Shown here piece by piece: positions 1 through 60,526 of a stretch of DNA of 64,000 bases. Position 1 is the first letter of the stretch. Every line of letters starts with the position of its first letter. The stretch spans positions 10,322 through 74,321 of the forward strand of contig CAZVPI010000007.1 of assembly GCA_964628035.1 (NCBI GenBank), given 5' to 3'. The stretch comes from an uncultured Clostridia bacterium (lineage in GTDB: Bacteria > Acidobacteriota > Aminicenantia > UBA2199). The notes beneath the pieces are model-generated. The model did not search any database and had not been told where the DNA came from. It saw only the letters and a program-made list of their open reading frames with translations. The translations under genes were made by a program, and so were the position numbers.

Positions 1-660
1 CAATGAGCCGTGGACCTTGTAAAGGCGAATGTGCTTCCTATGCTTGTAGATCGTCTTCAAAAGTCCGCGTTGGGGTACTTGTTCACGTATAAGCAAGGAT
101 TGATTCGCGGCCTCCCAATCAGTTCGCCGTTCTATGCCTCCACAAAATCCGCTTGTATAGTAGATGCCGACGTAATCGCAGGCATGCTCAAACAGCGTGT
201 CATAGTTTGGCGTCAGAACATGAAGGATGCGGTCTCCTTCAGGAAGTGTTTCGACCAGACGCTTGAAGAAGTTTGTTGCGGGCCAAGTTACGTCACCGTT
301 AGCGATTCGTAGGGCATACTCACGATCAAAGGCTGAGACAAACCGCCCGGTGGCTACGGTGATCTTTTGCAGAAGCACAGGATCGGTGACATTATCAAGA
401 GCAGATTCCAAGCTGACGCCTTTCTGAAGTGACTTAAGAACCTTTGCCCATTGCTTCTTTTGGCCAGACGAATGGGAGTCGGCAATAACGCTCTGGGCAA
501 GCTCATCTTTCAAAGATTGCATGCCGAAGTGGGGATCAAGCGCACATGACATTCCCGTTCCAAAAAACACAAACGGTTTATTGCGGAAGAAATCGCGTAT
601 GGTATTGATCGCAACGTCTTCGGTCATTTCTGGACGTGTTGATGATTGGGAGCTACCCAT
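1..660 (-). CDS. SIR2_2-family (Sir2-like NADase-type) domain protein, N-terminal about 220 aa; gene continues beyond window start
   Basis: Minus-strand translation from ATG at 660..658 reads MGSSQSSTRPEMTEDVAINTIRDFFRNKPFVFFGTGMSCALDP...LTPNYDTLFEHA...RLYKVHGS. FFGTGMS matches the Rossmann GAGxS motif, TPNYDTLFEHA matches the SIR2_2 ITTNYDxLLExA motif, and HGS is the C-terminal motif. It is not in the ORF track because it runs off the window edge. The start is 1 nt after the rmuC stop. Confidence 0.6.
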   Translation of the reverse strand, partial: MGSSQSSTRPEMTEDVAINTIRDFFRNKPFVFFGTGMSCALDPHFGMQSLKDELAQSVIADSHSSGQKKQWAKVLKSLQKGVSLESALDNVTDPVLLQKITVATGRFVSAFDREYALRIANGDVTWPATNFFKRLVETLPEGDRILHVLTPNYDTLFEHACDYVGIYYTSGFCGGIERRTDWEAANQSLLIREQVPQRGLLKTIYKHRKHIRLYKVHGSL

Positions 661-661
661 C

Positions 662-2134
662 CTATCCTCCCTCATCCGTTAGTACAGGCACATCTGAGCC
701 AATCTGTTCTGTTCCGAGGGTATCGATTAAATCCGTCGACAGCTCCGGTGCCGACAGCACACGTGGCGTTGTCTCGACAGGTGATAGAGGCGGAATCTCG
801 TTTCCAATCGCGGCCCCCAAGTCCTTGAACCTTCGAGCCGCAGGCAGAATCCTGACTTCCATCGAGCCAACCGCGCTGTTATATGCGGCGTTGGCTTTCT
901 CCAATCCCTTACCGATTTCCCCGATGTGCTCGGCCATGGTCTTCATGCGCTCATAGAGCTGCTTCCCGAGGTCGCTGATGACCTGGGCGTTCTTTGCGAC
1001 CTGTTCCTGACGCCAGCCATAGGCAATAGCACGCAAAAGCGCAATTAGTGTTGTTGGAGTCGATAAAACCACGCGCTTTTCCAACCCGTCTTCGATGAGG
1101 CTGTGGTCGGCATCCAACGCTGCGCCAAAAAATGATTCGCCTGGAATAAACATAATAACAAACTCAGGTGCTTTAGAAAATTGGCTCCAATACGCCTTCG
1201 ACGCAAGGGTATTCATGTGAGTTCGCACCTGAGCCGCATGTCGAGCCATCGCCGTCTTTCGCGTATCTTCCGACTCGGAAGCTATGGCGTCGAGGTACGC
1301 ATCTAGAGATACCTTTGCATCCACGACAATTTCTCTTTCGGAAGGAAGCCGAATGACGAGGTCGGGACGCTGGCGGCCTTCTTCAGTGCTTGCGGTAACC
1401 TGTTCGGTAAAATCACAGTGCTCGGACATCCCCGCCAACTCCACCACACGGCGAAGAGTCATTTCGCCCCACCGGCCTCTTACCTGGGGCTTTCGTAGTG
1501 CCGTAACAAGATTCGCAGTTTCTTTCTGCAGTTGTTGTTGACCCGCGGACAGTATCTTTAGATGCTCTGTAAGCCCCGAATAGGCATCTTGTCTATCCTT
1601 CTCGATTGTGCGTACATGTGCCTCAAATTTACTGATGGACTCTGACAGAGGCTTGACTAAACCTTGAATGGCTTCTTGACGTTTTCCAAGATCCCCCCTG
1701 GCATCCGTCAAAGCATTCTCAAGAGTTACCTTGGCTAATTTCAGGAAAGCCGTTGTGCTGTTGTTTAGAGTATCCCCAGCGAGTGCTTTAAAAGTATCCG
1801 TTAGCTTGCTTTTGGCTTCATTAAGAAAATTTCTTTCTTCTTGGAGATGCTGGACAGTTTCCGTCAATTGAGTTTCTGCTTTTACTCGCGCACTGCTTTC
1901 TTTTGTTAGTTGGTCTCTAATCCTGGACAAATCCTCAAAATTCTTTTGATTCTGTGCACGCAATTCGTTATTGATCCCTTCCAAACTCGAAACCCGTGTT
2001 TCAAAAGCGCTTGCTCTATGCTCCACATCACTAATTTTTTCTGAAAATTTCCTTGATACTCGATTTGATGCGATTACCCAAGTAAGAACTGCCCCAATTA
2101 AAAAACCAATTATTGCATAAAGAATAAAAAGCAT
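662..2134 (-). CDS. rmuC: DNA recombination protein RmuC family (N-terminal TM, coiled coil, C-terminal RmuC nuclease-like domain)
   Basis: 490-aa ORF. N-terminal hydrophobic helix, then a long coiled coil rich in Q/E/K, then the conserved RmuC C-terminal block (...[52 protein letters not shown]...). An AAGGAAGG RBS lies upstream of ATG 2134. Confidence 0.85.
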
Positions 2135-2322
2135 CGTTGCCCTTCCTTACATACTTATAATATGTTCTATAAATACACCAAATAATGAAGCAAAGACCTT
2201 TACAACAAGCGTTTAAGTTATTCATTCATTTATTACCACATTAATGTGATATTCATTTCTCTTCTATTGGTTCTCTTTAACAACTCGCCCCCTTTAAATA
2301 CACTCAATGTGATGGAATCCAC

Positions 2323-3552
2323 TTAATCACCTCGGTGATCACCAGATGGCCCCTTTGTGGCCCTTTCCCTTCCGCCAGACACTTGCTTTGCTCCTATGCG
2401 CTTCTTCATTCTAACAGACTCCGGCGGTTTGAAAGCGATCCCTTTTCGTTTCTGCAGCAGGGCTTGGGTCCGCTCGATCTCGGCAGCCAGTTCCTTTTCA
2501 TCGGGGAGGGCTGTCCGATACTCAGAAGCCATCACTTTATTCGGAAGTCCTTCCAACGCGTAGCGGGCAACGGCCGCGTCTTTCTGGGCGCAAAGAATCA
2601 GCCCCACGGGCGGATTTTCATCCTTACGGACCCAGTGTTCCTGCGCGTAGTTAAGATAAAGATGCATCTGTCCGGCGTCGGCGTAGGTGAATTTGCCGAT
2701 CTTCAAGTCGATAATCACCAGACATCGCAGGCGACGGTGGAAAAAGACCAGGTCCACCCGATACCATTCGTCCCCGATGCGCAGACGTTTCTGCCTGCCG
2801 ATGAAACAGAAGTCGCCGCCTAGCTCCAGGAGAAAAGATTCAAGGTGCCGGATAAGCGCCTCTTCCATGTCGGTTTCGGAGTATTCATCCTTGAGCCCGA
2901 GAAATTCCAGAAAATAAGGGTCCTTGATCTCCTCTTCGGGACGGATCCGATCCTTGACGCCGGCCTTCTCGCCCTTGATCAACATAGCGGCCTTGTTTCG
3001 GGATAGTGCCGTGCGTTCGTAGAACTGGGAATTGATCTGGCGATCGAGTTGCCGCACCGACCAACCGCCGCGCCGGGCTTCGGTTTCATAAAAACGCCTG
3101 GCATTTTCGTTCTTTACCGAAAGCAGCCGGACATATGCCGACCAAGGAAGAGAGAAGCAGGATGCGATGCTGGAAAGGGAAGATTCTGCAGACACTGTCT
3201 GCGGAATTTCAAGGCCATCCGATTCTGCGGATGTCGTCTGCGGAATCTGCCATGCGAGGTAGAACGCCTTTATTTGCCAGATATTGCGAACCGAAAAGCC
3301 CTTGCCGTAACGGGCGGACAAATCACCGGACAATCTTTCGATTAGTTCTTCACCATACCCCGCTCGCTTTTCTCCCCTTTGCTCAGTCTCCACAATTCGT
3401 CTTCCAATCAACCAGTAAGCGGCTGTCATCAGGCAATTTACCGAACGAGCCGCCGATCTCCTGGCCGCATCGATAACAGCGGAGATTTCGCCGAGGACGG
3501 AATCGTAATGTTCATCCAGCCGGGCGTCCGGTTTTATCGGCATTTTTGTCAC
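2323..3552 (-). CDS. YhcG/DUF1016-family PD-(D/E)xK nuclease
   Basis: 409 aa. A strong DUF1016 signature is present: DMEEALIRHLESFLLELGGDFCFIGRQKRLRIGDEWYRVDLVFFHRRLRCLVIIDLKIGKFTYADAGQMHLYLNYA, which contains a D...(I/V)DLK nuclease motif. Confidence 0.8.
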   Translation of the reverse strand: MTKMPIKPDARLDEHYDSVLGEISAVIDAARRSAARSVNCLMTAAYWLIGRRIVETEQRGEKRAGYGEELIERLSGDLSARYGKGFSVRNIWQIKAFYLAWQIPQTTSAESDGLEIPQTVSAESSLSSIASCFSLPWSAYVRLLSVKNENARRFYETEARRGGWSVRQLDRQINSQFYERTALSRNKAAMLIKGEKAGVKDRIRPEEEIKDPYFLEFLGLKDEYSETDMEEALIRHLESFLLELGGDFCFIGRQKRLRIGDEWYRVDLVFFHRRLRCLVIIDLKIGKFTYADAGQMHLYLNYAQEHWVRKDENPPVGLILCAQKDAAVARYALEGLPNKVMASEYRTALPDEKELAAEIERTQALLQKRKGIAFKPPESVRMKKRIGAKQVSGGRERATKGPSGDHRGD

Positions 3553-3607
3553 AGATCCCCCTTCCCGTCGAGCCGTCGTGCGTTCCGTGCTTGTTGTCTG
3601 AAGGTCA

Positions 3608-6600
3608 TCATTTCAATTTGCCTCCGTCAGCCATTCCATCCTCGAGCGACTTGGTCATAACATTGGCATTCAGCCAATAATGTTGGATCTTGACGACTTC
3701 CTGCCATGGGAACCTGGCCGGGTCCTTGATAGGATCAAGTAAGGTCGGCTGTTGCGAGCAATTGGTGACCACATAAAGCCAATAACAGTCACGGCGGTCC
3801 TGGGCTACCCGCCTTTCATTCGGGCTCAACAGGATGGCTCCACTGGATGCGCCGATGCCCTTGACTTCAATGAGCCGCAGTTCGCCGGAATTGATGTCCA
3901 GGCTGGTGATATCGTAGCCCAGGTTCTTTTCGTGAACGTCAAACACCTGGCGGCCCTGAGCTTTTTCATAATCTATCACCACATTCATCGCTTTGATTTC
4001 GGTCTCCTTGTTCTGGCGCAAATTACTAATCTCAGGATTTTCTCGTTCGGGATGCGGCAGGACAAGGATGCTGGCTATTCTTTCCACTCCTTGAAGGGAA
4101 AGCGATTTCTGGCGTTCAAGCTCCTCGCGTCGTCTTTCGCGGCGCGCCATGAGTTCAGCGTGTCGATTTTCCGCTTGCGACAAGCGACCGTCCGCTCCGA
4201 CAACCCCTTCATCTTTCTCTTCATTGGCCCTGCCGATCTCTTCATCGGCCCGTTGCAGCAGCTCGGTGAGGGAGAGATCCACGTGCTTTTCGATGCGCTT
4301 CACCTCGGCCAACCGCTCCTCGCGCACTTCATTCAAAAAAGGCTGGAGCGCATTGGCTTGCAACCAAGAGTCGGACTCGGGTTCATTGGCCATCGCTGGA
4401 ATTTCGCTTGGACGATCAGCAGGAATGAGATCATTGAGCATATTGGGTTCACGCAAGCAGGGTTCGGAATCCTTGGCTATTTCAACGGCGAAAAGCCGTT
4501 CGTGGACGATCTGCCCGAGTCCGTCCACAACGCGGGCGCGATAAAAATCGATGCGGCTGGGAATCGCGTGTTGCAAGGAATAAAAACAAGCCCCTTTCCC
4601 AAATACATCACCGGCCTTTTCGCAAGTAAATCTGCGCAACGCCTCAAAGAAGGGATGCCCGGGGGTGATCCATTCCAGGGTATTCTTTTCCGCAGTTTCA
4701 CGGTCGGTCGAACAGCGCGGGTATTTCGAAGCCAAGGCCGGCAATTTCCAATCCGGCTGGCGGTCGAACCGCTGTAGAACAGTTGGCAGGCGGGCTGGTT
4801 CAAAGGTGTGTGCTAGAGTGTCAATGACCTTCAGCTTCAACGGCACATAAGGGGCAGCCTCGATGATGAAGCGGGAGATGGTCTCGGGCACAACCCTTTT
4901 CTCCTGGGCCTTGGCGCGCCGTTCGAGCAACATGGCCAGGTTCAGCTTCTTGGAAGCCAGGCCCTCCAGTGCATTCTGACAGATGGCGCGAAAATGGCTC
5001 TCATCGACATTTTCAAGCAATTGATCTTCCAGATCGGCATCGCCCAGCTTTCCGGAATAGTAGTCGCGAAGCACCCTTTCGACATGGGTGACCGGGAGAA
5101 TCTCGCCGACGACATTAAAAACCGCATCGTCATCCAGGGCGTTGCGGATCTCCTGGAGCTTTTCCAAGAGACGCTGCAGGACCTTCCCCTCGATCGTGTT
5201 GGTCGCGACGAAGTTAAAGATCAGGCAGTCTTCCGTCTGTCCGTAACGATGGATGCGCCCCATGCGTTGTTCCAGGCGGTTGGGATTCCAGGGGATATCA
5301 TAGTTGAACATGATATGGCAGCATTGCAGGTTGATGCCTTCGCCGGCAGCCTCGGTGGCCACCAGGATCTGGATATCCCCTTGCCAGAATTGTTGCTCCG
5401 TATAGATGCGCGTGCCTGGCTCGTCCCGGGAGCCGGGTTTCATGCCGCCATGGATAAAACCCACCTTGAAGTTCCAGGATCGCAGCTTTTCAACGATGTA
5501 GTCGAGCGTGTCCTTGAATTCAGTGAACAAAAGAAGGCGCTTGTCCGGCTGATCAAAGAAGCCCTCCTGCTTCATCAACGATTTGAGTTTTGCTAATTTT
5601 GCCTCGGTATCAGAGATCTCGATATCTTTGGCCTTTTGCGCAAATTGGCGGAGTTCGGCGATCTCTTCGCGAACTTGCTCGGCATTGCCGGAGAGGGTAA
5701 TGGCTTCGAGAATCTGCTCAAGCCGTTCACGGTCATCCTCTTCCATCTCTTCGAGCTCTTCCGGATCAGGGAGGTCAGCCGGGGCTATGCGGATTAACTC
5801 CTGGGCTCGTTTCAGCCCATCCTCTAAGCGCCGAGCCCGGTTCTCCAGGCTATGCCGCATGGCGTACATACTGGATGCCAACCGGCGCTGATACAGGGCC
5901 ATCAAGAAACCGACCGCGCGAGCGCGCGGATCATCGCCTTGGGCGGCCGCCTTGGCACTCTGCCGCTTGACCATGCGCGTGATTTCGCAATAAAGTTCAC
6001 ATTCGGCGCCATCGATTTGAAAATCGACGGTTTGGGGGATACGCTTTTTGAAGATCTTTTCCGCCGCCCACGTACCATCCGCTTGCTGTTCGGGGAAATA
6101 GACCATGGCCTCCTTGGTACGGCGTAGATAAAACGGCGCACGCTTGCGTTCCATGGCTTCGTGGATGGAACGAACATCGGCATAGGCATCGGGATCCAAT
6201 AACTGCAGAAAACGGGTGAAATTCTCCGGATCGCCCTTATGGGGCGTCGCGGTCATGAGCAGCAAATGGTCCGTCGTATCGCGGAGCAACTCCCCGAGAG
6301 CGTAGCGAGCGGTTTTGCGCGCCGGCGGGGTCCAGGACATGTGGTGCGCCTCATCGATAACGATCAGGTCCCAATGAACCTGCTTCAATCCCGGCAAGAT
6401 GTCGGTACGCTTGGCCAGATCGAGCGAAGTAATAATTTTTTTCTGCTCCAGCCACTGGTTGACCCCGTATTGATCGCGGATTTCACTGCCTTTAATGACC
6501 ATGAACTTTTCAGCGAATTTTTCTTTCAACTCCCGCTGCCATTGGAAGGCGAGGTTGGCCGGGCATACGACCAATATTCGTTCGGCCAATCCCCGGAGTT

Positions 6601-7051
6601 GGAGTTCGCGAATCAGCAGACCGGCCATGATGGTCTTTCCCGCTCCAGCATCATCGGCAAGCAGAAAGCGAACTTGGGGAAGCTTGAGAAGATAATCGTA
6701 AACCGCTTCCAGTTGGTGCGGGAGCGGATCCACCCGGGAGATCGAAAGCCCGAAATAGGGATCGAATTCCCAGGCAATGCCAAGCGAATAGGCCTGCAAG
6801 CCCAAGCGAAGCAGTTCTCCATCGCCATCATAGGTGAAACCTGTACTCTGGACAGCAAGAGTTTGTAGATCTTTTTCTGAAAGCGTGACCTTGCGAAATT
6901 TTTCCGAGTTTATTCCTACAAGCCCCAAGGTCATCCCGCCGGAGGGATCGGCCTGAACCGTCTCCACACGCATGGGCTCATTGAAGAGAGAACCTGAAAT
7001 GACACATCCAACTCGAATTGAATCGTGTGACTTACTCATCACTGTCACCAT
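3608..7051 (-). CDS. SNF2-family helicase (DExx box, HELICc) with C-terminal DUF3883-like PD-(D/E)xK nuclease domain
   Basis: 1147 aa. Walker A LLADDAGAGKTIMAG and DExH box LIVIDEAHH are present. A helicase C-terminal block (...QRMGRIHRYGQ) follows. The C-terminal about 120 aa read ...DVHEKNLGYDITSLDINSGELRLIEVKGIGASSGAILLSPNERRVAQDRRDCYWLYVVTNC, which contains D...ExK. The start overlaps the upstream DUF2075 gene by 1 nt. Confidence 0.8.
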   Translation of the reverse strand: MVTVMSKSHDSIRVGCVISGSLFNEPMRVETVQADPSGGMTLGLVGINSEKFRKVTLSEKDLQTLAVQSTGFTYDGDGELLRLGLQAYSLGIAWEFDPYFGLSISRVDPLPHQLEAVYDYLLKLPQVRFLLADDAGAGKTIMAGLLIRELQLRGLAERILVVCPANLAFQWQRELKEKFAEKFMVIKGSEIRDQYGVNQWLEQKKIITSLDLAKRTDILPGLKQVHWDLIVIDEAHHMSWTPPARKTARYALGELLRDTTDHLLLMTATPHKGDPENFTRFLQLLDPDAYADVRSIHEAMERKRAPFYLRRTKEAMVYFPEQQADGTWAAEKIFKKRIPQTVDFQIDGAECELYCEITRMVKRQSAKAAAQGDDPRARAVGFLMALYQRRLASSMYAMRHSLENRARRLEDGLKRAQELIRIAPADLPDPEELEEMEEDDRERLEQILEAITLSGNAEQVREEIAELRQFAQKAKDIEISDTEAKLAKLKSLMKQEGFFDQPDKRLLLFTEFKDTLDYIVEKLRSWNFKVGFIHGGMKPGSRDEPGTRIYTEQQFWQGDIQILVATEAAGEGINLQCCHIMFNYDIPWNPNRLEQRMGRIHRYGQTEDCLIFNFVATNTIEGKVLQRLLEKLQEIRNALDDDAVFNVVGEILPVTHVERVLRDYYSGKLGDADLEDQLLENVDESHFRAICQNALEGLASKKLNLAMLLERRAKAQEKRVVPETISRFIIEAAPYVPLKLKVIDTLAHTFEPARLPTVLQRFDRQPDWKLPALASKYPRCSTDRETAEKNTLEWITPGHPFFEALRRFTCEKAGDVFGKGACFYSLQHAIPSRIDFYRARVVDGLGQIVHERLFAVEIAKDSEPCLREPNMLNDLIPADRPSEIPAMANEPESDSWLQANALQPFLNEVREERLAEVKRIEKHVDLSLTELLQRADEEIGRANEEKDEGVVGADGRLSQAENRHAELMARRERRREELERQKSLSLQGVERIASILVLPHPERENPEISNLRQNKETEIKAMNVVIDYEKAQGRQVFDVHEKNLGYDITSLDINSGELRLIEVKGIGASSGAILLSPNERRVAQDRRDCYWLYVVTNCSQQPTLLDPIKDPARFPWQEVVKIQHYWLNANVMTKSLEDGMADGGKLK

Positions 7052-8913
7052 TACTCCATCCTACTCTTGAAAAATCGTTCGGTTTCCTTGTCTTGGAAAT
7101 AAACATAGCACCCTTTCAGGCCACGTGAAAGCAGAACTCGGTACGTATTTTTTACTAAACTTAGGAAATTGTCCTTGCTCTTTTTCACTACTGGGTCGGC
7201 GGAGCAGGCCTTGTCGCCGATCCATTTTTGGGCATCGAAAGAATAGCAGAGGTCCTTGCCAAAGATTATCCCGACGTAGTCGAACTCGAAGCCCTGGGCC
7301 GTGTAGATGCAGCCGACCTGATCTATGCCCCCGGGATCATTGGCCCAAAGAGTGGCTTTGGGAATACCCTTAGCAAGGCGGGTAGCCTCCGGCTTGGCAT
7401 TCCAGGGGCGATGAAAGTCATCGATCTTCACGTCGTCGACCAGGGTCCCATCGGGACGGGCATCGGACCAGGACCAGCAAAAACCGGCGGCCAAGCGGGC
7501 GCTGAAGCCCTCTACCGCCTTGGCCCGGATCGCCTTATCCAGTTCTTCAGGCGACGGTAATATCCTGAAATCGAACTCCTCCTCCCTGGTGTTCCAAAGC
7601 ACGTTGGCCGTGCGGTGGATCCCTAGAGTATTTTCTATCCAGGCGACGAAACCCTGTGAGCCGGCGCAGCGAAACTGGATGTCGAGAGTGAACTCTTCGA
7701 TATTGGTCATGAGCGCGTTCCCGGCCTTGACGATGTAGTCGGTCGACCCTATCTCACCGGGTCGCACAACTTGGTCGTTATCAATGAAGAAGACGCAGAC
7801 CCGCGCCGCTTTTAAAAGCTCCTCCACCTGGGGTTTGTTCGATTTCTTCTGGAAGCGTGTATTACTAGTTTCGCGGATGCGGTGCGACTCGTCGCAGATT
7901 AGAACATCGACCTCGTCGGGCTGGGCGCCGGCATAACTGTTGAAATACTTGAATTGAACACTGCCTCGCCTGCCGATTACATTGCGCAGAGTCTCGGTAA
8001 AGGCCCGAGATCCGGTGGCGTAATGGGCGTTGAATCCCTTGCGGAGCAATTCAGCCATCAGATTGATGGCAATCACCGACTTTCCTGTGCCCGGGCCACC
8101 CCGGACAATAATCACATATTTTTGCCGCATGTGAAAACCGCGGTCCACGATGCCCAGGATCTTGTCGAATACGACACGCTGCTCGTCGAGAAGAATATAC
8201 TCAGCCTTGCCCTCGATCACACCGGCCACATGGTCCATCAGTTTTTTGCTGGGGCGGTACTTGCTCTCCTCGACCCGGCGCAAGACTTCCATCCCATTCC
8301 CTTTCTTGAGGCGCCGATCCAGGTATGCGCAGATGGAGTCGAAATCGTCTGCAGTAAAGACGGGAGAAGATGCGATAAGAGAGTCAAACTTTGACGCGAA
8401 AAGGACATCCTTTGGTTCCGGCGCATAGTTATGCAGATAAGCGCAGGAATGCAGGTCAACTGGATTGTCGTCAGCATAAAAAGCCGTGTGCGTATCCTTA
8501 AGATATTGTTTGTAATAATCAACCTGGGCCGAAGGATGCAGCACATCTGTGTATCCTCCGGCAAGGATAGTGGACAGTTCGTTGTCGCCAATGGCTTCCC
8601 GGCATTTCCCCCACTGCTTGAGTTCAACGATGACCGCATTGTCCATATCGTCTTCATTCCTGCCGCAGACCATACAATCCAGCCTTTTCGAGCTCAAGGG
8701 AAGTTGGTATTCAAGCAGAATGCCATGATCGACCAATCCCGCGTGTTGGATAACGTCCTTCATCCTTATGAGCGAGTTGTTCCAGGAGCGGATCTCGGCC
8801 TCAGACGGGTTGTATCGGAAATGCTCGAAAAAGGAGCGCCGCAATTTTTCCGAGATCTGGTTGCGAACCGTGTCCTCGATGAAATTCTTAGAATTCCCGG
8901 CGTAAAGCCTCAT
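7051..8913 (-). CDS. DUF2075-family (Schlafen-like) P-loop ATPase/helicase with N-terminal PD-(D/E)xK-like nuclease domain
   Basis: 620 aa. The N-terminal region has D...ELK (RLDCMVCG...NAVIVELKQW). Walker A is IIVRGGPGTGKSVIAINL and Walker B/DExH is VLICDESHRI. The C-terminal DUF2075 region (FVAWIENTL..., CIYTAQGFEFDYVGIIFG) follows. It overlaps the MazG-like gene by 4 nt and the SNF2 gene by 1 nt. Confidence 0.8.
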   Translation of the reverse strand: MRLYAGNSKNFIEDTVRNQISEKLRRSFFEHFRYNPSEAEIRSWNNSLIRMKDVIQHAGLVDHGILLEYQLPLSSKRLDCMVCGRNEDDMDNAVIVELKQWGKCREAIGDNELSTILAGGYTDVLHPSAQVDYYKQYLKDTHTAFYADDNPVDLHSCAYLHNYAPEPKDVLFASKFDSLIASSPVFTADDFDSICAYLDRRLKKGNGMEVLRRVEESKYRPSKKLMDHVAGVIEGKAEYILLDEQRVVFDKILGIVDRGFHMRQKYVIIVRGGPGTGKSVIAINLMAELLRKGFNAHYATGSRAFTETLRNVIGRRGSVQFKYFNSYAGAQPDEVDVLICDESHRIRETSNTRFQKKSNKPQVEELLKAARVCVFFIDNDQVVRPGEIGSTDYIVKAGNALMTNIEEFTLDIQFRCAGSQGFVAWIENTLGIHRTANVLWNTREEEFDFRILPSPEELDKAIRAKAVEGFSARLAAGFCWSWSDARPDGTLVDDVKIDDFHRPWNAKPEATRLAKGIPKATLWANDPGGIDQVGCIYTAQGFEFDYVGIIFGKDLCYSFDAQKWIGDKACSADPVVKKSKDNFLSLVKNTYRVLLSRGLKGCYVYFQDKETERFFKSRME

Positions 8914-9278
8914 TTGAATTCAGTATATTTCTTGGCCGAACCCTTAGCCTTATCGACAGGGTATCGGACTTCATTATGACCGATTTTTTTCCGAATCGCC
9001 TTCTCGATATCTATCTTGGCCTCATGAGCAAAAAGCATGGAAAAGATTAGGATATCGGCAATTTCAGAGGCAAGCCTCTCCCTTTTCTCCTTTGTGATCT
9101 TCCTAGATTCCTGAGGGGTCTTCCAGAGGAAATGTTCCAAGAGCTCTCCTGCCTCTATTGAAATCGCTTCCGCCAGATTCTTCGGATCATGAAACTGCGC
9201 CCAATCACGACGGTCACGAAAAACCAGGATCGTCTCCATTAAATCCCCAGGCATCTTCATTTCATGCCCCCCATCCAT
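8910..9278 (-). CDS. MazG-like all-alpha NTP pyrophosphohydrolase (start may be the internal METILVF at about 9239)
   Basis: The EAGELLEHFLWK and ASEIADILIFSMLFA motifs (E-x-x-E...E-x-x-D metal-binding helices) are typical of MazG/YpjD-like NTP-PPases. The protein is 110-122 aa. It is the first gene of a three-gene overlapping operon. Confidence 0.7.
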   Translation of the reverse strand: MDGGHEMKMPGDLMETILVFRDRRDWAQFHDPKNLAEAISIEAGELLEHFLWKTPQESRKITKEKRERLASEIADILIFSMLFAHEAKIDIEKAIRKKIGHNEVRYPVDKAKGSAKKYTEFK

Positions 9279-9320
9279 CTATTTGAAATCCACTGTTTCA
9301 GGCTAGCTAATTTTAAAAAA

Positions 9321-9349
9321 CGCAGCATTCAATGTCAACCCCAATATTT
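9321..9349 (-). promoter_or_regulatory. sigma70-like promoter TTGACA-N17-TAAAAT upstream of the MazG/DUF2075/SNF2 operon
   Basis: The minus-strand sequence reads TTGACAttgaatgctgcgtttttTAAAAT, with the -35 at 9349..9344 and the -10 at 9326..9321. It sits about 40 nt upstream of the MazG-like start in an AT-rich intergenic region. Confidence 0.35.
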
Positions 9350-9566
9350 TCCTTTTTTTGCCCTGATATAGCCAAGTTCAGATATTTGAATGAGAGAAAA
9401 TAGGGAAAAATGTGATCCCTTCGAAATACGAAGCCAGAGGTTCGACGTCCAAGGGAATTGGGGTCAGGTCTTGAAATGACAGATCCTTCATCGTCCCTAT
9501 TCATGTTTCCGCAGGGCCAAGCTGATGCTCGAATAATGCATCCCCAGATAATCGCCGATTTCACGC

Positions 9567-9860
9567 ATGGTCTATCCTGCCCTCAACATAGGCCCGGTAA
9601 AGAAACATGAGGGGCGGGTCTTGAACACGTTCATCCATACCATCGCCCACCAGATCGGCGTCGGCATGCTGAAGCTCCTGGGAACGGTTTTCGCCTCCAC
9701 CCGCTTCCCGGCCGACCTGGCCGATCCCCTCGGCTACCTGGCCGTGCTGACCCTGTTCGCCGTGCTGCTGACCCTGGCCAAGAAGATCGCCTGGATCGTG
9801 CTGGCCGTGGGCTGGGGATTCATCGTCATCAGGCTGTTGATGATCATCTTCAAGATCTAG
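9567..9860 (+). CDS. small membrane protein, two TM helices (true start possibly MLKLLG at about 9669)
   Basis: The ORF track shows a 97-aa ORF. The C-terminal two-thirds are hydrophobic (LGYLAVLTLFAVLLTLA, IAWIVLAVGWGFIVIRLLMIIF). It lies at the low-GC/high-GC junction and I do not recognise the family. Confidence 0.35.
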   Translation: MVYPALNIGPVKKHEGRVLNTFIHTIAHQIGVGMLKLLGTVFASTRFPADLADPLGYLAVLTLFAVLLTLAKKIAWIVLAVGWGFIVIRLLMIIFKI

Positions 9861-9861
9861 A

Positions 9862-10011
9862 GACGTTAGACATTAGCCGTTAGACGGTAGACGAGAGAAC
9901 GAGCACGAGACATTAGACGTTAGACGTCAGCAAGAGAAAGCAAGTGAAAAAGGAGGGGAGTCGCTCTACTTAATGCGTTTCCTTGTCACTCGTCACTCTT
10001 CACTTGTCACC
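9862..10011. repeat. modular intergenic repeat: TAGACGT-type tandem units, a GAAAGCAAGTGAAAAAGGAGG box, then a GTCACTC-type array
   Basis: agacgttagacattagccgttagacggtagacgag...gacattagacgttagacgtcagc is followed by cttgtcactcgtcactcttcacttgtcacc. The same modules recur in at least 18 other intergenic regions. Confidence 0.7.
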
Positions 10012-10023
10012 AAAGTTCGCCTG

Positions 10024-10506
10024 TTAAATGAACAACGTGAACTTGGACTCCGAGGCGTCGGCGATGAACGAGGCGACGCCGCCGATCGCGACGCCGTCGA
10101 TCAGGTCCTCCTTCTTGATCTCCATGACGTTCATGCTCATCTCGCAGGCGGTGAGCTTGACGCCGAGGTCCTGCGCCTGCTTGAGCAGCTGGGGCAGGCT
10201 GGTGACGTTGTGGGCCTTCATCATCTTCTTGAACATCCAGCGGCCCAGGCCGCCGAAGTTGAACTGGGAGGGGCCCAGGCGGTCGATGCCGCCGCGGTTC
10301 AGCAACCCCAGCATGCGGCCCATCAGCCCCTTGCCGGTCAGGTTGCCCTTCTGGATGGCCTTCAGCCCCCAGAAGGTGAAGAACATGGAGACCTGCATGT
10401 CGAAGGCGGCGGCGCCGGTGGCGATGATGAAGGCGCCCATCACCTTGTCCATGTCGCCGCTCATGACCACCAGGCTCGCTTTCTCAGGCGTTTGCGCGTC
10501 GCTCAT
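10024..10506 (-). CDS. dsrE: DsrE/DsrF-like sulfur-relay family protein
   Basis: 160 aa, reading MSDAQTPEKASLVVMSGDMDKVMGAFIIATGAAA...TACEMSMNVMEI. This is a DsrE-fold protein with a conserved Cys, and it is the last gene of the tusA-hdr operon. Confidence 0.7.
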   Translation of the reverse strand: MSDAQTPEKASLVVMSGDMDKVMGAFIIATGAAAFDMQVSMFFTFWGLKAIQKGNLTGKGLMGRMLGLLNRGGIDRLGPSQFNFGGLGRWMFKKMMKAHNVTSLPQLLKQAQDLGVKLTACEMSMNVMEIKKEDLIDGVAIGGVASFIADASESKFTLFI

Positions 10507-31198: not shown

Positions 31199-31285
31199 CG
31201 TCAACGCCGCGCCCGGGGCGAACTCGCCCCCTGCTGCCAGTCCGTGGGGACGATCATCCAACCGATAGGGCCGAGGCGGGCCGGC

Positions 31286-32671
31286 TCACCAGCTCTGCAT
31301 GCCTCGCTTGGAGCACACCTCGACCTCTCCCGGGAGGATCATGACCTCTTTGGGGCCGCTGGCAAGGTCATAGCGGATGTAGATCGATTTTTCGGCGATG
31401 GCCTCGCCGCTCTGCGTCGCCAGGTGCAAGGTCACCGTGAGTTTGGGGTAATAATCGGCGATGCAGAGCTTGCCGCCCTCGAACGCCCCCCCCTTCTGTT
31501 TCACCCCCACCCTCTGGCCGACCGCCAGGCCCTGGCAGTTCGGGTCGAATTCGGCATGGAACGTGACGTCGGCCCAGCCGAGCTGGGTCGGTTGCGCGCT
31601 CAAATGGAACGGCGGCCCCCCCTTCAGCGAGTAGACCGCGTCATGGACCTTGACGGCCGTGAACGAACCGTCCTTGGCCGTTCGCGGCACCTCGATGACG
31701 CAGCGGGCATACAGGGAGCCGTATTGCGGATGGCCGAAAAGCGGCGTCAGCGTGAAGCCCGATGGAGACGTGGCGCGCACGATCATGCCCACGCCCTGTA
31801 CGTCGCCATGGTCATACATTCCGTGCCCGAGGGAATCAACGGCGATCGTGGCCTTCTGGGCGAGCAAGTCCTTCACGTCCAGGGCGCGCACGGTCAGCAC
31901 GGGCACAGGGGAGAGCGGGCTGATCGTGAACTCGCCGCTGTCGCCATGGATCTTGCCATCAAGGGTCTGCACGCGCACAACGTGCTTGCCGGTGCGCTCG
32001 GTCGGCGCCAGCTTCCAGGTGAAGGAGCCCGAGTTGGGCGCGCTCTGGGCGATCCAGCGCCCCTGGCCGGCGGCGGCCAGCTGGGGCTGGCCCGCGGGAT
32101 AGAGCATGATCTTCACGTCGCCGTAGCCTCCGCCGGCGAGCGTCCAAGTGATCTTGGCCTCGTTGCCCTGCACCAGGACGGCTCCGGCGGACGGGTAGGT
32201 CACCCGCAGCGTCGGCGTGATCGCGTTCGCACCGGGTTGCGGGTTCTTGCGCAGGAGGATCATGTTGCCAGGCGGCGGTGCAGGAGGGACCGGCGCCGCA
32301 GGCGTGCCGGCGATTTCGAAAGGCCCTGCCTCCTTGTCCAGGATCGTGCTCGCGCCGTCGATCCTGACCAGCTGCAGCATGTATCCCTTGGCCGCCGGCA
32401 CGGCCTTGCCGTTCTCCAACATCCCCACCTGCCAGGCGAAGGAACCGCCGGCCAGGGGCAAGCCCGACTTGACCGGGCCGAGCTTGGTCCCCGCGGGGCC
32501 ATAAAGAAGAATCTTGACCGTGGCGCTCCCGGAATAGGTCCACTGGATCGTCTTCAGCTCGCCGAAGTTCCAAACCGTGTTCGCCTGCGGCACGGTGATC
32601 TCGGCAGTCTGGGCGGTGAGCAGCAGGGCAAGGGAAAACAAGGCGATGATCGCGATTGCTTTTTTGACCAT
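31286..32671 (-). CDS. secreted protein with repeated Kre9/KNH-like (Ser/Thr-rich GPI-anchored family-like) beta-sandwich modules
   Basis: 461 aa with a signal peptide. The modules TVWNFGELKTIQWTYSGSATVKILLY, AKITWTLAGGGYGDVKIMLY and SGSFTWKL repeat. Confidence 0.5.
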   Translation of the reverse strand: MVKKAIAIIALFSLALLLTAQTAEITVPQANTVWNFGELKTIQWTYSGSATVKILLYGPAGTKLGPVKSGLPLAGGSFAWQVGMLENGKAVPAAKGYMLQLVRIDGASTILDKEAGPFEIAGTPAAPVPPAPPPGNMILLRKNPQPGANAITPTLRVTYPSAGAVLVQGNEAKITWTLAGGGYGDVKIMLYPAGQPQLAAAGQGRWIAQSAPNSGSFTWKLAPTERTGKHVVRVQTLDGKIHGDSGEFTISPLSPVPVLTVRALDVKDLLAQKATIAVDSLGHGMYDHGDVQGVGMIVRATSPSGFTLTPLFGHPQYGSLYARCVIEVPRTAKDGSFTAVKVHDAVYSLKGGPPFHLSAQPTQLGWADVTFHAEFDPNCQGLAVGQRVGVKQKGGAFEGGKLCIADYYPKLTVTLHLATQSGEAIAEKSIYIRYDLASGPKEVMILPGEVEVCSKRGMQSW

Positions 32672-32716
32672 GATGTCTCCTCCTGCCCAGGAAATAGAAG
32701 ATTTGCGCGCCTTATC

Positions 32717-32908
32717 TCAGAAAAGATCGTCACGTTTCACTTGGACAAAGGAAAGGCGCGTGTCTTCCTCGGCAAGGCGCCGCGGCAGCGGGTTTGGCGG
32801 TTTCCTGAAGACCGGGACCAGGGCGATCAGGACCTCCTCCAGCTGCGGGTAGGCCTCGATGAGCTGCAGCACCTTCGTCTTGGGGGTGATGACCGGCTTG
32901 TCGTCCAC
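32717..32908 (-). CDS. DUF1858-family small protein
   Basis: 63 aa. ITPKTKVLQLIEAYPQLEEVLIALVPVF matches DUF1858. It is adjacent to a DUF438 protein, and this pairing is conserved. Confidence 0.55.
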   Translation of the reverse strand: MDDKPVITPKTKVLQLIEAYPQLEEVLIALVPVFRKPPNPLPRRLAEEDTRLSFVQVKRDDLF

Positions 32909-32911
32909 GGT

Positions 32912-34177
32912 TCACTCCCCGTACTGCAGGATGCGCCGCTGGCCCTCGAGCCGGCGGTAGCGCCCGACGTCGTGCGACACCTCGAGCGTGCCCAGGTACT
33001 CCCCCTTGCCGCTGCGCAGGGCGAAGTACTCGATGTGGATGAACTTGTCCCCCATCTGGATCCAGAAGGGGGCGCGGCTCTGCCTGCCGCTCTTGAAATC
33101 CTCGAGGATGCGCTCCACGATGTGGGCGCTGGCCGGCGGGTGGCAGTGGCGCACGTCGCGCTGCAGGATGGCGCGGTTGCGCTGGAAGACGCGCTCGGCG
33201 CCCTGGGTGAAATACTTGACCTTGTCGTCGCGGTCGACGAAGGTCATGTCGACCGGCACGGTGTTCAGGATGGCCAGAAGTTCTTCCGAAGTGAAGCTTC
33301 CTGAGGGGAGGACAATCTTATCGCCCCGCACTGCATGGCCTTCTGCCGAAGCGGCAGGGCTCGGCTTTTCCGCCACCTCCTCGGCGGCGGAGTCCCCCGG
33401 ATCGCGGGGCGGCCATTCGGCCGGGGGATCATAGAGGCAATAGCCAAACTGGCTGGACTCCCGGCCGATGGCACGCCAGTCGCCCTCGCTCAGCTTGTCC
33501 AGCGCCATGGGCAGCAGGATCTCCTCCTCCTTGGCGGTCATGTCGTCGATCGCCTGCAGCGCCGGCCGCAGCAGGATGTCGGCAACGGCCAGCAGCTCGT
33601 CGCGCCCCATCTCCCCGGCCTGCAGCGCCTCGATGCCCCCCTTGAGCTGGTCGCGGATCTCGTCGTGCTTGCCCCACATCACCTTGGGCGGGCCGGTGAT
33701 CCCCTGCTTCTCCAGGTAGGGGAAGACAAGGTACTCCTTGCGCTGGTAGTGCTTGTCGGCGTCGAACAGCAGGTTGAACAGCAGGCGCAGCTCCAGGACG
33801 GCGGCGGCGGCGTCACCGCCGCCGGCGGCCTCATGGAGCACCTGGCGCGCCCGCGCCGTCACCTTGCGCAGCTCGGCGTTCTCGCGGCGCAGGACGTCGA
33901 CCGGGTGGCCGGCCGGCACCGGCTTCTGGCCGCTCAGGTCGACGCGGCCGTGCAGCACCGCCGAGTGGGCGTCGCAGAGCTTGAGCACTTCTGACTCGGG
34001 CAGCCCCTCGCCCATCAGTTCCTGCTCGACCTCGACCACCTCGCCGTAGGGGACGGCGGCCAGGCTCTGCAGCAGCTCGCGGCGCACCGCCTCCTGGCCC
34101 TCGCCGGCATGCAGCTTCAGGATCAGCTCCTTCAATTTCTTCTTTCTATCCCGTGAGTTGTCGATGATCTCGCTCAT
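32912..34177 (-). CDS. DUF438 / hemerythrin-like / PAS-like domain protein
   Basis: 421 aa. The N-terminal DUF438 region is followed by hemerythrin-like HHE cation-binding segments (HYQRKEYLVFPYLEK, HDEIRDQ) and a C-terminal PAS-like region. Confidence 0.6.
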   Translation of the reverse strand: MSEIIDNSRDRKKKLKELILKLHAGEGQEAVRRELLQSLAAVPYGEVVEVEQELMGEGLPESEVLKLCDAHSAVLHGRVDLSGQKPVPAGHPVDVLRRENAELRKVTARARQVLHEAAGGGDAAAAVLELRLLFNLLFDADKHYQRKEYLVFPYLEKQGITGPPKVMWGKHDEIRDQLKGGIEALQAGEMGRDELLAVADILLRPALQAIDDMTAKEEEILLPMALDKLSEGDWRAIGRESSQFGYCLYDPPAEWPPRDPGDSAAEEVAEKPSPAASAEGHAVRGDKIVLPSGSFTSEELLAILNTVPVDMTFVDRDDKVKYFTQGAERVFQRNRAILQRDVRHCHPPASAHIVERILEDFKSGRQSRAPFWIQMGDKFIHIEYFALRSGKGEYLGTLEVSHDVGRYRRLEGQRRILQYGE

Positions 34178-46428: not shown

Positions 46429-46637
46429 CATACCCGTTTTTAATTTATTTTGGACAGATTTGATAAGCAATGAGAAGCTGCACAAGATCGATCTGTGCTG
46501 ATTCAAATGCAAATCACGAATCACGACAGGAAGGGATCATTTGCTTCATTCTTGAATGAATGCAAAATGTCCTGCTTCCCGGTCGCATTTTCACTTTGCT
46601 TCTGGCACAATTTTGTTTGCGAGATCGAGAGGAGCCG

Positions 46638-53870: not shown

Positions 53871-54313
53871 GACAGGTCCAGGTGCCGCAGGCGGCTGCGG
53901 ACGGTGATGCGCCGCCTGCCGTCGCCCTCCTCGTTCAGGGTCACGGCGACGGCCTGGGGCAGCGAAAAGTAGCCCGCGTCGAGATATTGGGCCCACTCGA
54001 CGGCGAGCACCCCGGCGCCGAGGAACTCGTCGACAGGGTTCTCCAGAGCCTCGGGCATCACTCCCAGGCGGTAAAGGTCGAAGTGATAGAGGTCGTGCCG
54101 GCCGGCATAAAGGTTCATCAGCACGTACGAAGGGCTGACCACCTCGGCGGCCGGGATGTCCAGCCCCGCGGCCAGCCCCTTGATGAAGACGGTCTTGCCG
54201 GCCCCGAGTTCGCCGCTGACCAGGACGAGCTCATCGCCGCGCAGCAGCCGGCCCAGGCGCTCGCCCAGGGCCTGGGTCTCCTCAGGAAGCGAGGTAAGGA
54301 GAGAGAAATCCAT
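53867..54313 (-). CDS. tsaE: tRNA threonylcarbamoyladenosine biosynthesis protein TsaE
   Basis: 148 aa. The P-loop is VLVSGELGAGKTVFIKGL. The YjeE family C-terminal region includes HFDLYRL. Confidence 0.85.
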   Translation of the reverse strand: MDFSLLTSLPEETQALGERLGRLLRGDELVLVSGELGAGKTVFIKGLAAGLDIPAAEVVSPSYVLMNLYAGRHDLYHFDLYRLGVMPEALENPVDEFLGAGVLAVEWAQYLDAGYFSLPQAVAVTLNEEGDGRRRITVRSRLRHLDLS

Positions 54314-58075: not shown

Positions 58076-58078
58076 GTG

Positions 58079-59053
58079 CTATTCTCCCTGGGGGGATCTC
58101 CCCGCGCGGCCGCGGTGGATGAGGGTCCCCGAACGGCCGGCCAGCGCCGCCTTGAGCTTCTCGGCCGAGGTGATCAGCACCTGGCGGCCGCCGCCCTGGA
58201 TGTAGTCGATGGCGGCGACGATCTTGGGCCCCATCGAGCCGGGCGGGAATTGTCCCTGCTCCAGCATGCGCCGGGCCTGCTGGACGTCCATGGCGGCGAC
58301 GGGCCGGGCGTTCTCCTTGCCGAAGTTCTCCCAGACGCGGTCGACGCCGGTCAGGATGATGAACAGGTCGGCCTTCGCCTCGCGGGCGATGAGCGCCGAG
58401 GCGTGGTCCTTGTCGATGACCGCCTCCACCCCCTCCACCAGCCCCGAGGAGTTGATGAAGACCGGGATGCCGCCGCCGCCGGCGGCGATGACCACGATGC
58501 CCCGCTCCACCAGCGAGCGGATCGCCCGCTTGGGGATGATGTCGATGGGCAGCGGCGAGGGGACGACGCGGCGGAAGCCGCGGCCGGCGTCCTCCACCAT
58601 CTGCCATTTGTTCTCTTTGCGCAACTGGGCGGCGCGGAAGGCGTTGTAGAAAGGGCCGATGGGCTTGGTGGGGTTCTGGAAGGCCTTGTCCTCGCGGTCG
58701 ACCACCACCTGGGTCAGAACCGTCGAGACCTCCTTGTCGATGGAGCGCTTGCGCATCTCGTTCAGCAGGGCCCGCTCCAGCATGTAGCCCATGCTGCCCT
58801 CGGTCATGGCGTCGCAGACGTCGAGCGGGAAAGCGGGGAGGGTGTTGGCCGCCGCTTCCATTTGCAGCAGCAGGTTGCCCACCTGCGGGCCGTTGCCATG
58901 GACGATGATCAGCTCGTAGCCCTTGCGCACGATCTCGACCATCAGCTGGGCCGCTTTCTGGGCGTTGCGGTATTGTTCCCTGGCCGTGCCCTTGGACCCG
59001 GCTTCCAGCATGGCATTGCCCCCGAAAGCGATCAAGGCCAGTTTGTTTCTCAT
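58079..59053 (-). CDS. arcC: carbamate kinase
   Basis: Start MRNKLALIAFGGNAM. The conserved regions IVHGNGPQVG and VIAAGGGGIPV are present. A GGAGAA RBS is upstream. Confidence 0.8.
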   Translation of the reverse strand: MRNKLALIAFGGNAMLEAGSKGTAREQYRNAQKAAQLMVEIVRKGYELIIVHGNGPQVGNLLLQMEAAANTLPAFPLDVCDAMTEGSMGYMLERALLNEMRKRSIDKEVSTVLTQVVVDREDKAFQNPTKPIGPFYNAFRAAQLRKENKWQMVEDAGRGFRRVVPSPLPIDIIPKRAIRSLVERGIVVIAAGGGGIPVFINSSGLVEGVEAVIDKDHASALIAREAKADLFIILTGVDRVWENFGKENARPVAAMDVQQARRMLEQGQFPPGSMGPKIVAAIDYIQGGGRQVLITSAEKLKAALAGRSGTLIHRGRAGRSPQGE

Positions 59054-59125
59054 CGTTCTCCAGCCCCGCAAAAAAAGCCGTCCGCCCCCTGCCGGGAGCG
59101 GACGGCGGCTGCGCCGCTGCGGCGC

Positions 59126-60440: not shown

Positions 60441-60526
60441 AAATTCCTCCTGTATTTTTGTTGTTTTTCGCAGTGGCAATGAACGGTAATTATAAACAAT
60501 ATGGGGCGGGGTGTCAATGATAAAAA

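Follow-up and report, generated by a model that had tools for sequence, protein, structure and literature searches.

The 64,000-nucleotide (nt) window analysed here, taken from contig CAZVPI010000007.1 of an uncultured bacterium, carries at positions 3608-9349 three tightly joined genes for a MazG-like nucleotide pyrophosphohydrolase (gene 1), a DUF2075 nuclease-helicase (gene 2) and an SNF2-DUF3883 protein (gene 3), which an initial annotation had proposed to be an undescribed three-gene defence system. With good confidence we read them as two modules and not as one, i.e. a mobile MazG-DUF2075 cassette formed by genes 1 and 2, an independent candidate defence module, and an Hma system that is headed by gene 3; on this reading a defence island of ~18 kb, acquired horizontally and with all genes in the same orientation, has this stretch as its 5' end. 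The part of the initial proposal that stands is a conserved and uncatalogued MazG-DUF2075 pair. The self-contained trio does not stand, as gene 3 belongs to Hma: the apparent novel system resolves into Hma and a separate cassette, the identifying partner genes having been hidden beyond the window edge.

The three genes, their junctions and the promoter

The main features are listed below. Coordinates refer to the window unless a locus identifier (L001, L091 etc.) is given.

9310..9338, minus strand: sigma-70-type promoter-like site TTGACA-N17-TAAAAT, upstream of the MazG-like gene, 11/12 match
8910..9278, minus strand: gene 1, MazG-like, open reading frame (ORF) of 122 amino acids (aa)
7051..8913, minus strand: gene 2, DUF2075 (whole ORF), 620 aa, Nhi-like nuclease-helicase
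3608..7051, minus strand: gene 3, SNF2-DUF3883, identified here as hmaA, ORF of 1147 aa

The tight joining of the three ORFs was confirmed, genes 1 and 2 overlapping by 4 nt (ATGA, common bases 8910-8913) and genes 2 and 3 by 1 nt (base 7051, in GGAG TAATG); the true start of gene 1 is possibly an ATG at codon 7 or 9. The promoter that had been claimed is present as well, at 9338..9310 on the minus strand. It is the best site and the sole 11/12 match within window positions 1-10200, a region in which promoter-like sites are not enriched (7 found, 7.3 expected from shuffles). The site is likely to be the promoter of the MazG-DUF2075 cassette, transcription possibly reads through from it into hmaA, and the three genes are probably co-transcribed. 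The motifs GPGTGKS, DESH, DEAHH and E42xxE45xxE48...E72xxD75 can be read in the three translations, and the assignments to MazG, DUF2075, SNF2 and DUF3883 were all upheld by Pfam. The combination of a motor with a nuclease that had been suggested for both large proteins is borne out by Pfam, by conserved residues and by a predicted fold.

Gene 3 and the Hma system

The initial annotation had matched the trio to no named system, and Hma was absent from its list of exclusions. Gene 3, however, matches the PADLOC profile HmaA (PDLC00659) at E 8.8e-176, aa 53-1096 corresponding to profile positions 47-1131 of 1176. Pfam detects SNF2-rel_dom (1.7e-17), Helicase_C (1e-23) and NOV_C, i.e. DUF3883 (3.7e-22, aa 1018-1104), so that an SNF2 translocase at aa ~108-640 is followed by a NOV_C/DUF3883 PD-(D/E)xK nuclease at aa 1018-1104 (window 3740-4000).

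The partner genes were found on a 48-kb metagenomic contig, L001, retrieved by an exact-protein look-up and 99.9% identical to the window over 12 kb (L001 position equals 12135 minus the window position). The gene order on L001, all on one strand, is MazG-like, DUF2075, HmaA, DUF1016/YhcG, RmuC, SIR2, HerA (DUF87), DUF1156, AbiJ_NTD4/Abi_C and DUF499. The DUF1156 gene (L001 14393-17374) matches PADLOC HmaB at 2.1e-112 and the DUF499 gene (L001 18330-21095) matches PADLOC HmaC at 7e-90, both by Pfam domain and profile, on the strand of gene 3 and outside the window. Since the HmaA match is nearly full-length and HmaB and HmaC follow downstream, gene 3 is identified, at the level of sequence, as hmaA, the first gene of a complete Hma system that is cut by the window edge.

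Related systems fit gene 3 less well. The NCBIfam profile DISARM_DrmD scores 358 bits against a cut-off of 610, and the PADLOC matches to DrmD and BrxH are weaker than that to HmaA and leave out the C-terminus. No genes for DrmA, DrmB, DrmC, PglZ or BrxC, the core partners in DISARM and BREX, were found on L001.

Hma (helicase, methylase, ATPase) was defined by Payne et al. 2021 (PMC8565338), and Hma-type systems were renamed DUF499-centred Type-1 BREX-related systems in a 2026 analysis (PMC12839542). HmaB is a DUF1156 protein and methyltransferase and HmaC a DUF499 ATPase (PMC11232893), while the HmaA of Halomonas by itself defends against T4, via its NOV_C nickase activity (Liu et al. 2024, PMC11232893). 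An embedded-gene architecture was reported for 62.7% of Hma systems (bioRxiv 10.1101/2024.01.29.577857). The locus described here resembles them in the SNF2 and NOV_C architecture of gene 3, in the same-strand HmaB and HmaC genes and in the defence cassettes embedded between the hma genes. It differs in two respects. Firstly, four genes (DUF1016, RmuC, SIR2 and HerA) separate hmaA from hmaB, whereas the published survey allowed three, so that automated tools may fail to recognise this Hma as complete. Secondly, hmaA is preceded by a docked two-gene cassette that overlaps it by 1 nt, for which there is no description in Hma systems.

Distribution of the trio

If the three genes formed one unit, hmaA should accompany the pair elsewhere. 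The survey comprised 80 species-level loci holding the DUF2075 gene, and hmaA was found downstream of it in none (0/80). A NOV_C domain lies nearby in only one of the 80 (L085, Caldisericia), where an hmaA stands 2.4 kb away, divergent and on the opposite strand. Weak HmaA matches near other DUF2075 loci were ruled out as DUF3883, being helicase-core matches to unrelated superfamily 2 proteins.

Close relatives of the individual proteins point the same way. Downstream of DUF2075 relatives at 83-85% identity there are two HNH_2 genes and no hmaA, and at L087 (~84% DUF2075 identity) a Y1 transposase and a Dnd-like cluster follow amid toxin-antitoxin genes, again with no hmaA. Conversely, HmaA relatives at 81% (Aminicenantes) and 78% identity (Desulfoglaeba) have no MazG-DUF2075 pair upstream. 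The only further island with MazG-DUF2075-hmaA is L091, the HmaA of which is 91% identical to that of the window by global alignment (93% as listed). The homology to L091 forms a single block of 5.6 kb through both junctions, plus hmaB and hmaC. The L091 pair is, however, closer to the pair of the Hma-less L087 (88%) than to the pair of the window (84% and 76%). This affinity, together with the neighbour genes of the relatives, indicates that the trio is confined to one narrow Hma lineage and that the pair moves independently. The stop/start overlap does not prove a functional unit either, because hmaA of Halomonas shares 4 nt with ptuA, a Septu gene embedded in that Hma locus, although the two belong to separate systems (PMC11232893).

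The MazG-DUF2075 pair across genomes

For 78 of the 80 loci enough upstream sequence was available for a search with the MazG profile. Of these 78 loci, 56 have a MazG-like ORF immediately upstream and in the same orientation, 1 has it convergent and 21 are without it. The junctions are mostly -4 to +6 nt, with a range of -4 to about +30 nt, and clustering of all 1,043 flanking ORFs revealed no other broadly conserved neighbour. No MazG-DUF2075 fusions were present among 390 collected proteins, barring one odd 283-aa fragment (P0184) that was not used as evidence. Distant pairs are known from plasmids: an annotated 'nucleotide pyrophosphohydrolase' accompanies DUF2075 in Priestia (36% identity), between a restriction enzyme and a type I restriction-modification system, and in Halalkalicoccus (34% identity), while a B. 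thuringiensis plasmid carries a nucleoside triphosphate (NTP) pyrophosphatase, an HNH gene and DUF2075 (25% identity). Judged from these sequences the pairing is ancient and spread over bacteria and archaea.

The raw list of defence neighbours of the pair includes HNH, AbiEii, type IV and Mrr restriction enzymes, SoFic, PDC-S02 and type I restriction-modification genes; a DUF3578 neighbour weakly matches a profile for type IV methyl-directed restriction enzymes. The company of HNH_2, DUF3578, Mrr and type IV genes fits a modified-DNA theme without proving one.

A few variants of the neighbourhood were also seen. Tandem HNH_2 genes of ~300 aa, separated by gaps of 6-16 nt, follow the pair at L108:2438-4271 and L111:2353-4186 (83-85% identity), with further tandem examples at L045:4492-6335 and L056:10380-12250, which makes MazG-DUF2075-HNH-HNH a recurrent four-gene variant. 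The N-terminal ~160-190 aa of the HNH_2 proteins correspond to no Pfam family, and the first HNH protein found nothing among PDB sequences. In about 11 loci a protein family of ~270-340 aa stands just upstream of the cassette and sometimes replaces MazG (e.g. L039:2164-3030, L046:6828-7631, L050:5232-6266 and L062:7072-7872); four members scanned had no Pfam match, and the L039 member had none in PADLOC. Finally, a Hymenobacter canadensis plasmid (NZ_CP114769.1, L089:3904-7890) holds tandem DUF2075 genes beside a DNA methyltransferase and DUF4747, with no MazG-like gene annotated.

The nuclease-helicase encoded by gene 2

Gene 2 can be divided into two parts.

8194..8913, minus strand: N-terminal domain (~aa 1-240), PD-(D/E)xK nuclease fold (predicted), with E68, D79, E97-L-K99 and Q100
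7090..8121, minus strand: C-terminal domain (aa 265-608), DUF2075/SLFN-g3 superfamily 1B (SF1B) helicase-ATPase, with Walker A GPGTGKS and Walker B DESH

The helicase part (aa 265-608) matches Pfam PF09848 (DUF2075, now SLFN-g3_helicase) at E 4.5e-85, and in Foldseek it finds RecD2 (1e-10) and then SLFN11, Dda, Upf1 and Dna2, i.e. an SF1B fold. The N-terminal region has no Pfam match, and a comparison of the gene 2 sequence with PDB chains found nothing. Since Foldseek with the full-length protein resolved the helicase half only, the N-terminal domain was folded separately. The fold predicted for the N-terminal 262 aa (predicted local distance difference test, pLDDT, of 83) confirmed it, as a model, as a PD-(D/E)xK nuclease domain. 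Across 54 relatives at 27-57% identity, conservation is 100% at E68, D79, E97-x-K99, Q100 and the residues of Walker A and Walker B. The catalytic motifs of genes 1-3 are intact and the MazG-DUF2075 pair is under strong purifying selection. A Fe-S or Zn site, suggested by four apparently invariant cysteines, was dropped, as these are conserved in only 41-52 of the 54 divergent relatives.

The family is large. At least 7,952 proteins match at E <= 1e-10, and full-length identities of 60-65% extend over many bacterial and archaeal phyla. The N-terminal domain occurs in 1,879 representatives of 50%-identity clusters, always at the N-terminus, in proteins of ~620 or ~800 aa. With the patterns used, the family was found in 164 of 185,579 species genomes. 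For a putative defence protein the family is unusually well conserved, which implies either a recent and wide horizontal spread or a strong constraint. The mean column identity of the family is 73%, and its members include Omnitrophota, Bacillota, Bathyarchaeia, Methanosarcina and Thermoplasmata.

Another feature of the family is a C-terminal Peptidase_S24 (LexA/UmuD-like) domain of ~165-198 aa, which is fused to about a third of the members and is scattered over the tree; the protein of the window is without it. The fused loci are L009-L013, L015-L018, L020, L022, L026, L027, L029, L034, L035, L037, L056, L064, L072, L073, L080 and L081. These S24 domains retain the serine of G-x-S-M-E-P and the lysine of T-(V/I)-K-(K/R), and upstream of them there is an A-A-G or A-V-A motif similar to the Ala-Gly self-cleavage site of LexA. 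The motifs suggest that S24-fused DUF2075 proteins might be activated in a manner triggered by RecA on single-stranded DNA.

The MazG-like protein encoded by gene 1

Gene 1 matches Pfam PF12643 (MazG-like) at E 2e-18 with 66.7 bits (cut-off 27), and had no match among PADLOC and NCBIfam profiles. Among PDB chains it aligns over its whole length with dCTP pyrophosphatase 1 (6sqw, 2a3q; E 8.5e-19), and its closest solved relatives are dCTP pyrophosphatases and dUTPases. Sequence comparison makes it a clear homologue of the MazG-like all-alpha NTP pyrophosphohydrolases of the DCTPP1/RS21-C6 type. The metal site is retained in the 55 MazG-like partners, with E42 at 100%, E45 at 98%, E48 at 93%, E72 at 100% and D75 at 100%.

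The likeness to DCTPP1 (RS21-C6, XTP3TPA) thus comprises an end-to-end alignment and the ExxE...ExxD metal site. Two sources (PMC4491611, PMC13510388) describe eukaryotic DCTPP1 as a house-cleaning enzyme that is selective for abnormal cytosine triphosphates such as 5-methyl-dCTP. The protein studied here differs in being prokaryotic, in its length of 122 aa, in its location in a defence island and in its translational coupling to a nuclease-helicase.

Comparison with known systems

It is useful to compare the pair with defence systems that share one or the other of its components. Two validated defences, Nhi of Staphylococcus (Bari et al. 2022) and Nhi-like (Millman et al. 2022), each consist of a single protein in which a nuclease is combined with DUF2075, and Nhi degrades phage replication intermediates. 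Gene 2 likewise encodes a single polypeptide with an N-terminal restriction-type nuclease and a C-terminal DUF2075 SF1 helicase. The similarity in sequence is limited, as gene 2 matches PADLOC Nhi (PDLC02372) at aa 236-390 only (E 3.7e-13), and the comparison with Nhi-like is one of architecture alone. Unlike Nhi, members of the gene 2 family are mostly accompanied by a MazG-like gene (72% of loci), and some have a fused S24 domain or tandem HNH genes. Bearing on action by one gene, as in Nhi, are the 21 of 78 loci in which the DUF2075 gene stands without MazG, against 56 of 78 with it. PDC-S41 and AbiO are distant DUF2075-family single genes listed as defence candidates or systems. Neither is of the same family as gene 2: PDC-S41 matches at E 5.5e-16 in three short stretches, the best at aa 534-605, and AbiO at E 2.9e-14 over aa 237-390 only.

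The partner enzyme recalls the nucleotide-depletion defences, which employ a dCTP deaminase or a dGTPase. They share with gene 1 a deoxynucleoside triphosphate (dNTP)-destroying enzyme in an anti-phage context, but gene 1 is a small accessory to a DNA-degrading motor and not a standalone effector. DefensePredictor lists MazG domains among its predicted, unvalidated defence domains (PMC13092281).

A third comparison concerns modification-dependent endonucleases of the McaZI type (DUF3427-DUF3883), which adjoin DUF2075 NTPases (Lutz et al. 2019, PMC6765204). The likeness consists in a DUF2075 NTPase next to a protein with a DUF3883 nuclease in a restriction context. There, however, the DUF3883 protein is a small modification reader-nuclease, whereas here the domain is the C-terminus of a 1147-aa SNF2 Hma protein, and the adjacency is not conserved in the gene 2 family (1/80). 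An arrangement that echoes McaZI was seen on a Streptomyces plasmid (NZ_CP109577.1, L096:1761-4839), where a standalone DUF3883 protein of 319 aa directly precedes a DUF2075 protein 39% identical to that of the window.

Gene 3 and the island (Hma with embedded SIR2-HerA and PDC-S02) are therefore already known, and so is the Nhi-like architecture of gene 2. The pair itself is not in PADLOC 2.0.0, and no paper describing MazG together with DUF2075 or Nhi-like was found in the literature searched. As far as sequences can tell, what is new is a conserved, widespread and uncatalogued pair of a MazG-like enzyme and a nuclease-helicase, and not a three-gene system. This defines a testable candidate module, an Nhi-like nuclease-helicase with a dCTP-pyrophosphatase-like partner, in both prokaryotic domains.

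Proposed mechanism

By analogy to Nhi, the helicase of gene 2 would load on phage replication intermediates and its nuclease would degrade them. The MazG-like partner, judged by the biochemistry of DCTPP1, may hydrolyse cytosine-derived dNTPs, i.e. 5-methyl- or 5-hydroxymethyl-dCTP, or dCTP, which would starve phage DNA synthesis of a protective modified base or of dCTP itself. Alternatively, it could keep modified nucleotides released by the breakdown of phage DNA out of the host genome. Following the literature, HmaA would work independently as an ATP-dependent nickase, HmaB probably marks self DNA and HmaC may act as the sensor. The tight junction to hmaA would then be a sign that the cassette has docked in front of the operon and is transcribed together with it, and not that the three proteins form one machine.

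Taken further, the pair might be a bona fide unnamed two-component immune system, in which the DCTPP1-type enzyme destroys the modified dCTP or the dCTP of the phage while the nuclease-helicase degrades its replication intermediates; in relatives the motor would be set off by LexA-like self-cleavage in response to RecA, or would work with tandem HNH nucleases. We hold this extension as tentative, possible rather than probable. A bolder sub-case would have the cassette functionally wired to Hma in this lineage. If the MazG-like enzyme does target modified dCTP, it would be a host counter to phage DNA hypermodification at the level of the nucleotide pool, complementing type IV restriction. There would also be a parallel to eukaryotic DCTPP1 and to the Schlafen-type helicase domain of human antiviral and genome-surveillance proteins.

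Alternative explanations

The pair could be defensive while the MazG-like enzyme has a regulatory or safeguarding role, degrading a nucleotide signal or alarmone which would otherwise activate the nuclease-helicase, or is an antitoxin-like partner. E. coli MazG, for instance, limits (p)ppGpp in the mazEFG module. The upstream, translationally coupled position is typical of regulator and antitoxin genes, 27% of loci do without the gene, which was repeatedly gained or lost, and other family members have a different regulatory device in the LexA-like self-cleaving S24 domain. Yet the nearest solved relatives are dCTP pyrophosphatases and dUTPases and not (p)ppGpp hydrolases, and S24-fused members mostly still have MazG, which means that the two do not substitute for each other; the strictly conserved catalytic site fits either role. 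We regard this explanation as rather unlikely.

Another view is that the pair is a mobile housekeeping module for DNA repair and the nucleotide pool, a RecD/Dna2-like nuclease-helicase with a dNTP sanitiser, and not immune. Conservation that is unusually high for a defence gene (~60% identity across bacteria and archaea), the SOS-type LexA-like fusions, NUDIX/MutT, ERCC4 and HhH neighbours in a few loci, and the house-cleaning role that PMC4491611 and PMC13510388 give to DCTPP1 in eukaryotes would all be in line with it. Nevertheless, the distribution is patchy, down to the 164 species genomes given above, and the context variable; the pair sits in low-GC (guanine plus cytosine) islands and plasmids beside restriction-modification, Abi, toxin-antitoxin, Dnd and Hma genes, and the architecture of gene 2 is the same as in the validated Nhi and Nhi-like proteins. 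A repair module thus appears distinctly unlikely.

An integrated defence system in which the products of all three genes act together, as first proposed, we now judge improbable. The stop/start overlaps with a single strong promoter and the collinear block kept in L091 despite different embedded cargo speak for it. So do the DUF2075 NTPases that adjoin DUF3883 nucleases in unrelated contexts (McaZI, PMC6765204; the Streptomyces plasmid) and the hmaA at 2.4 kb from the DUF2075 family member of Caldisericia. Against these stand the separate occurrence of the pair and of HmaA even in close relatives, the lack of a downstream hmaA throughout the 80 loci with its single opposite-strand NOV_C, and the membership of hmaA in a complete HmaABC set. 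Moreover, HmaA of Halomonas by itself protects against T4, and Hma operons routinely carry unrelated systems with overlapping junctions.

A phage origin, with the pair left over from a replication or nucleotide-metabolism module, is very improbable. MazG-like enzymes and Dda-type SF1B helicases are often encoded by phages, the helicase of gene 2 is similar in fold to T4 Dda, and homologues occur in 4 phage records and 2 close IMG/VR contigs. Such relatives are few, however (2 close ones in 2.9 million viral contigs, seen by an alignment-based scan and none by a single-sequence scan, and 4 of 50,697 phage records, against 164 species genomes), no phage structural or integrase genes are among the conserved or most frequent neighbours, and Dda does not have a restriction-type nuclease at its N-terminus.

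The two-module explanation remains the one that we prefer, and several points weigh against parts of it. MazG-DUF2075-hmaA has been kept as an uninterrupted 5.6-kb block in two islands while the cargo changed, and this makes some functional integration with Hma conceivable. The MazG-like gene is accessory, given the 27% of loci (21/78) without it; its substrate is not readable from sequence and its role could be regulatory. The defence role of the pair is one that we infer from architecture and context, the list of defence neighbours is a raw one, and some immediate neighbours are repair-like (NUDIX, ERCC4). Homology of gene 2 to the validated Nhi appears distant, as the PADLOC Nhi and AbiO matches are limited to the P-loop region (E ~1e-13).

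The island, its cargo and its surroundings

The defence context that had been presumed for the three genes is real: they lie in a low-GC island alongside Hma, PDC-S02, RmuC, SIR2-HerA and Abi-like genes. The GC content is ~50% over the first ~9.6 kb of the window and ~68% over the remainder, as read from a composition profile. The other island features within the window are the following.

2323..3552, minus strand: DUF1016_N plus YhcG_C PD-(D/E)xK nuclease (Pfam), PADLOC candidate PDC-S02 (9e-129)
662..2134, minus strand: RmuC-family gene, Pfam RmuC 2.4e-105, PADLOC RTasRmuC (profile labelled DRT) 3e-62
1..660, minus strand: 5' part of a SIR2 gene, cut by the window edge, PADLOC SIR2 1e-141 (on L001)
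9570..9620, no strand: right island border, approximate, from the GC shift; host Fe-S and DsrE genes are next

On L001 the SIR2 gene is followed by HerA (PADLOC HerA 2e-227). L091 and the island of the window share a backbone of MazG-DUF2075-hmaA, hmaB and hmaC at 83-89% DNA identity. The cargo between hmaA and hmaB is different, with DUF1016, RmuC and SIR2-HerA at L001:8706-14335 and KAP_NTPase, QatB, a QueC-like gene and ASCH at L091:6130-11002. The comparison illustrates cargo turnover, SIR2-HerA, DUF1016 and RmuC versus a Qat-like cassette, around a stable Hma scaffold.

No transfer RNA or Rfam element was found at the insertion junction of the island. Just inside the border there is a truncated ORF of 83 aa (9313-9564, minus strand) that ends in the helix-turn-helix-like peptide MREIGDYLGMHYSSISLALRKHE; it has no Pfam match and may be the remnant of a transposase or regulator. 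On the host side, intergenic heptamer arrays occur at 9861-9927 and 9985-10010 (AGACGTT ~10 times with 74% matches, and GTCACTC ~3.7 times). Host ORFs at 31244-33304, 46560-49043, 54156-55973 and 56225-60520 (plus strand) have no Pfam match at E <= 1e-5, one of them, of 1431 aa, having a lower GC content at third codon positions (0.64). The remaining host region contains ordinary chromosomal genes such as rpoN and those for phosphotransferase system (PTS) enzyme I, a hybrid histidine kinase and a sugar epimerase.

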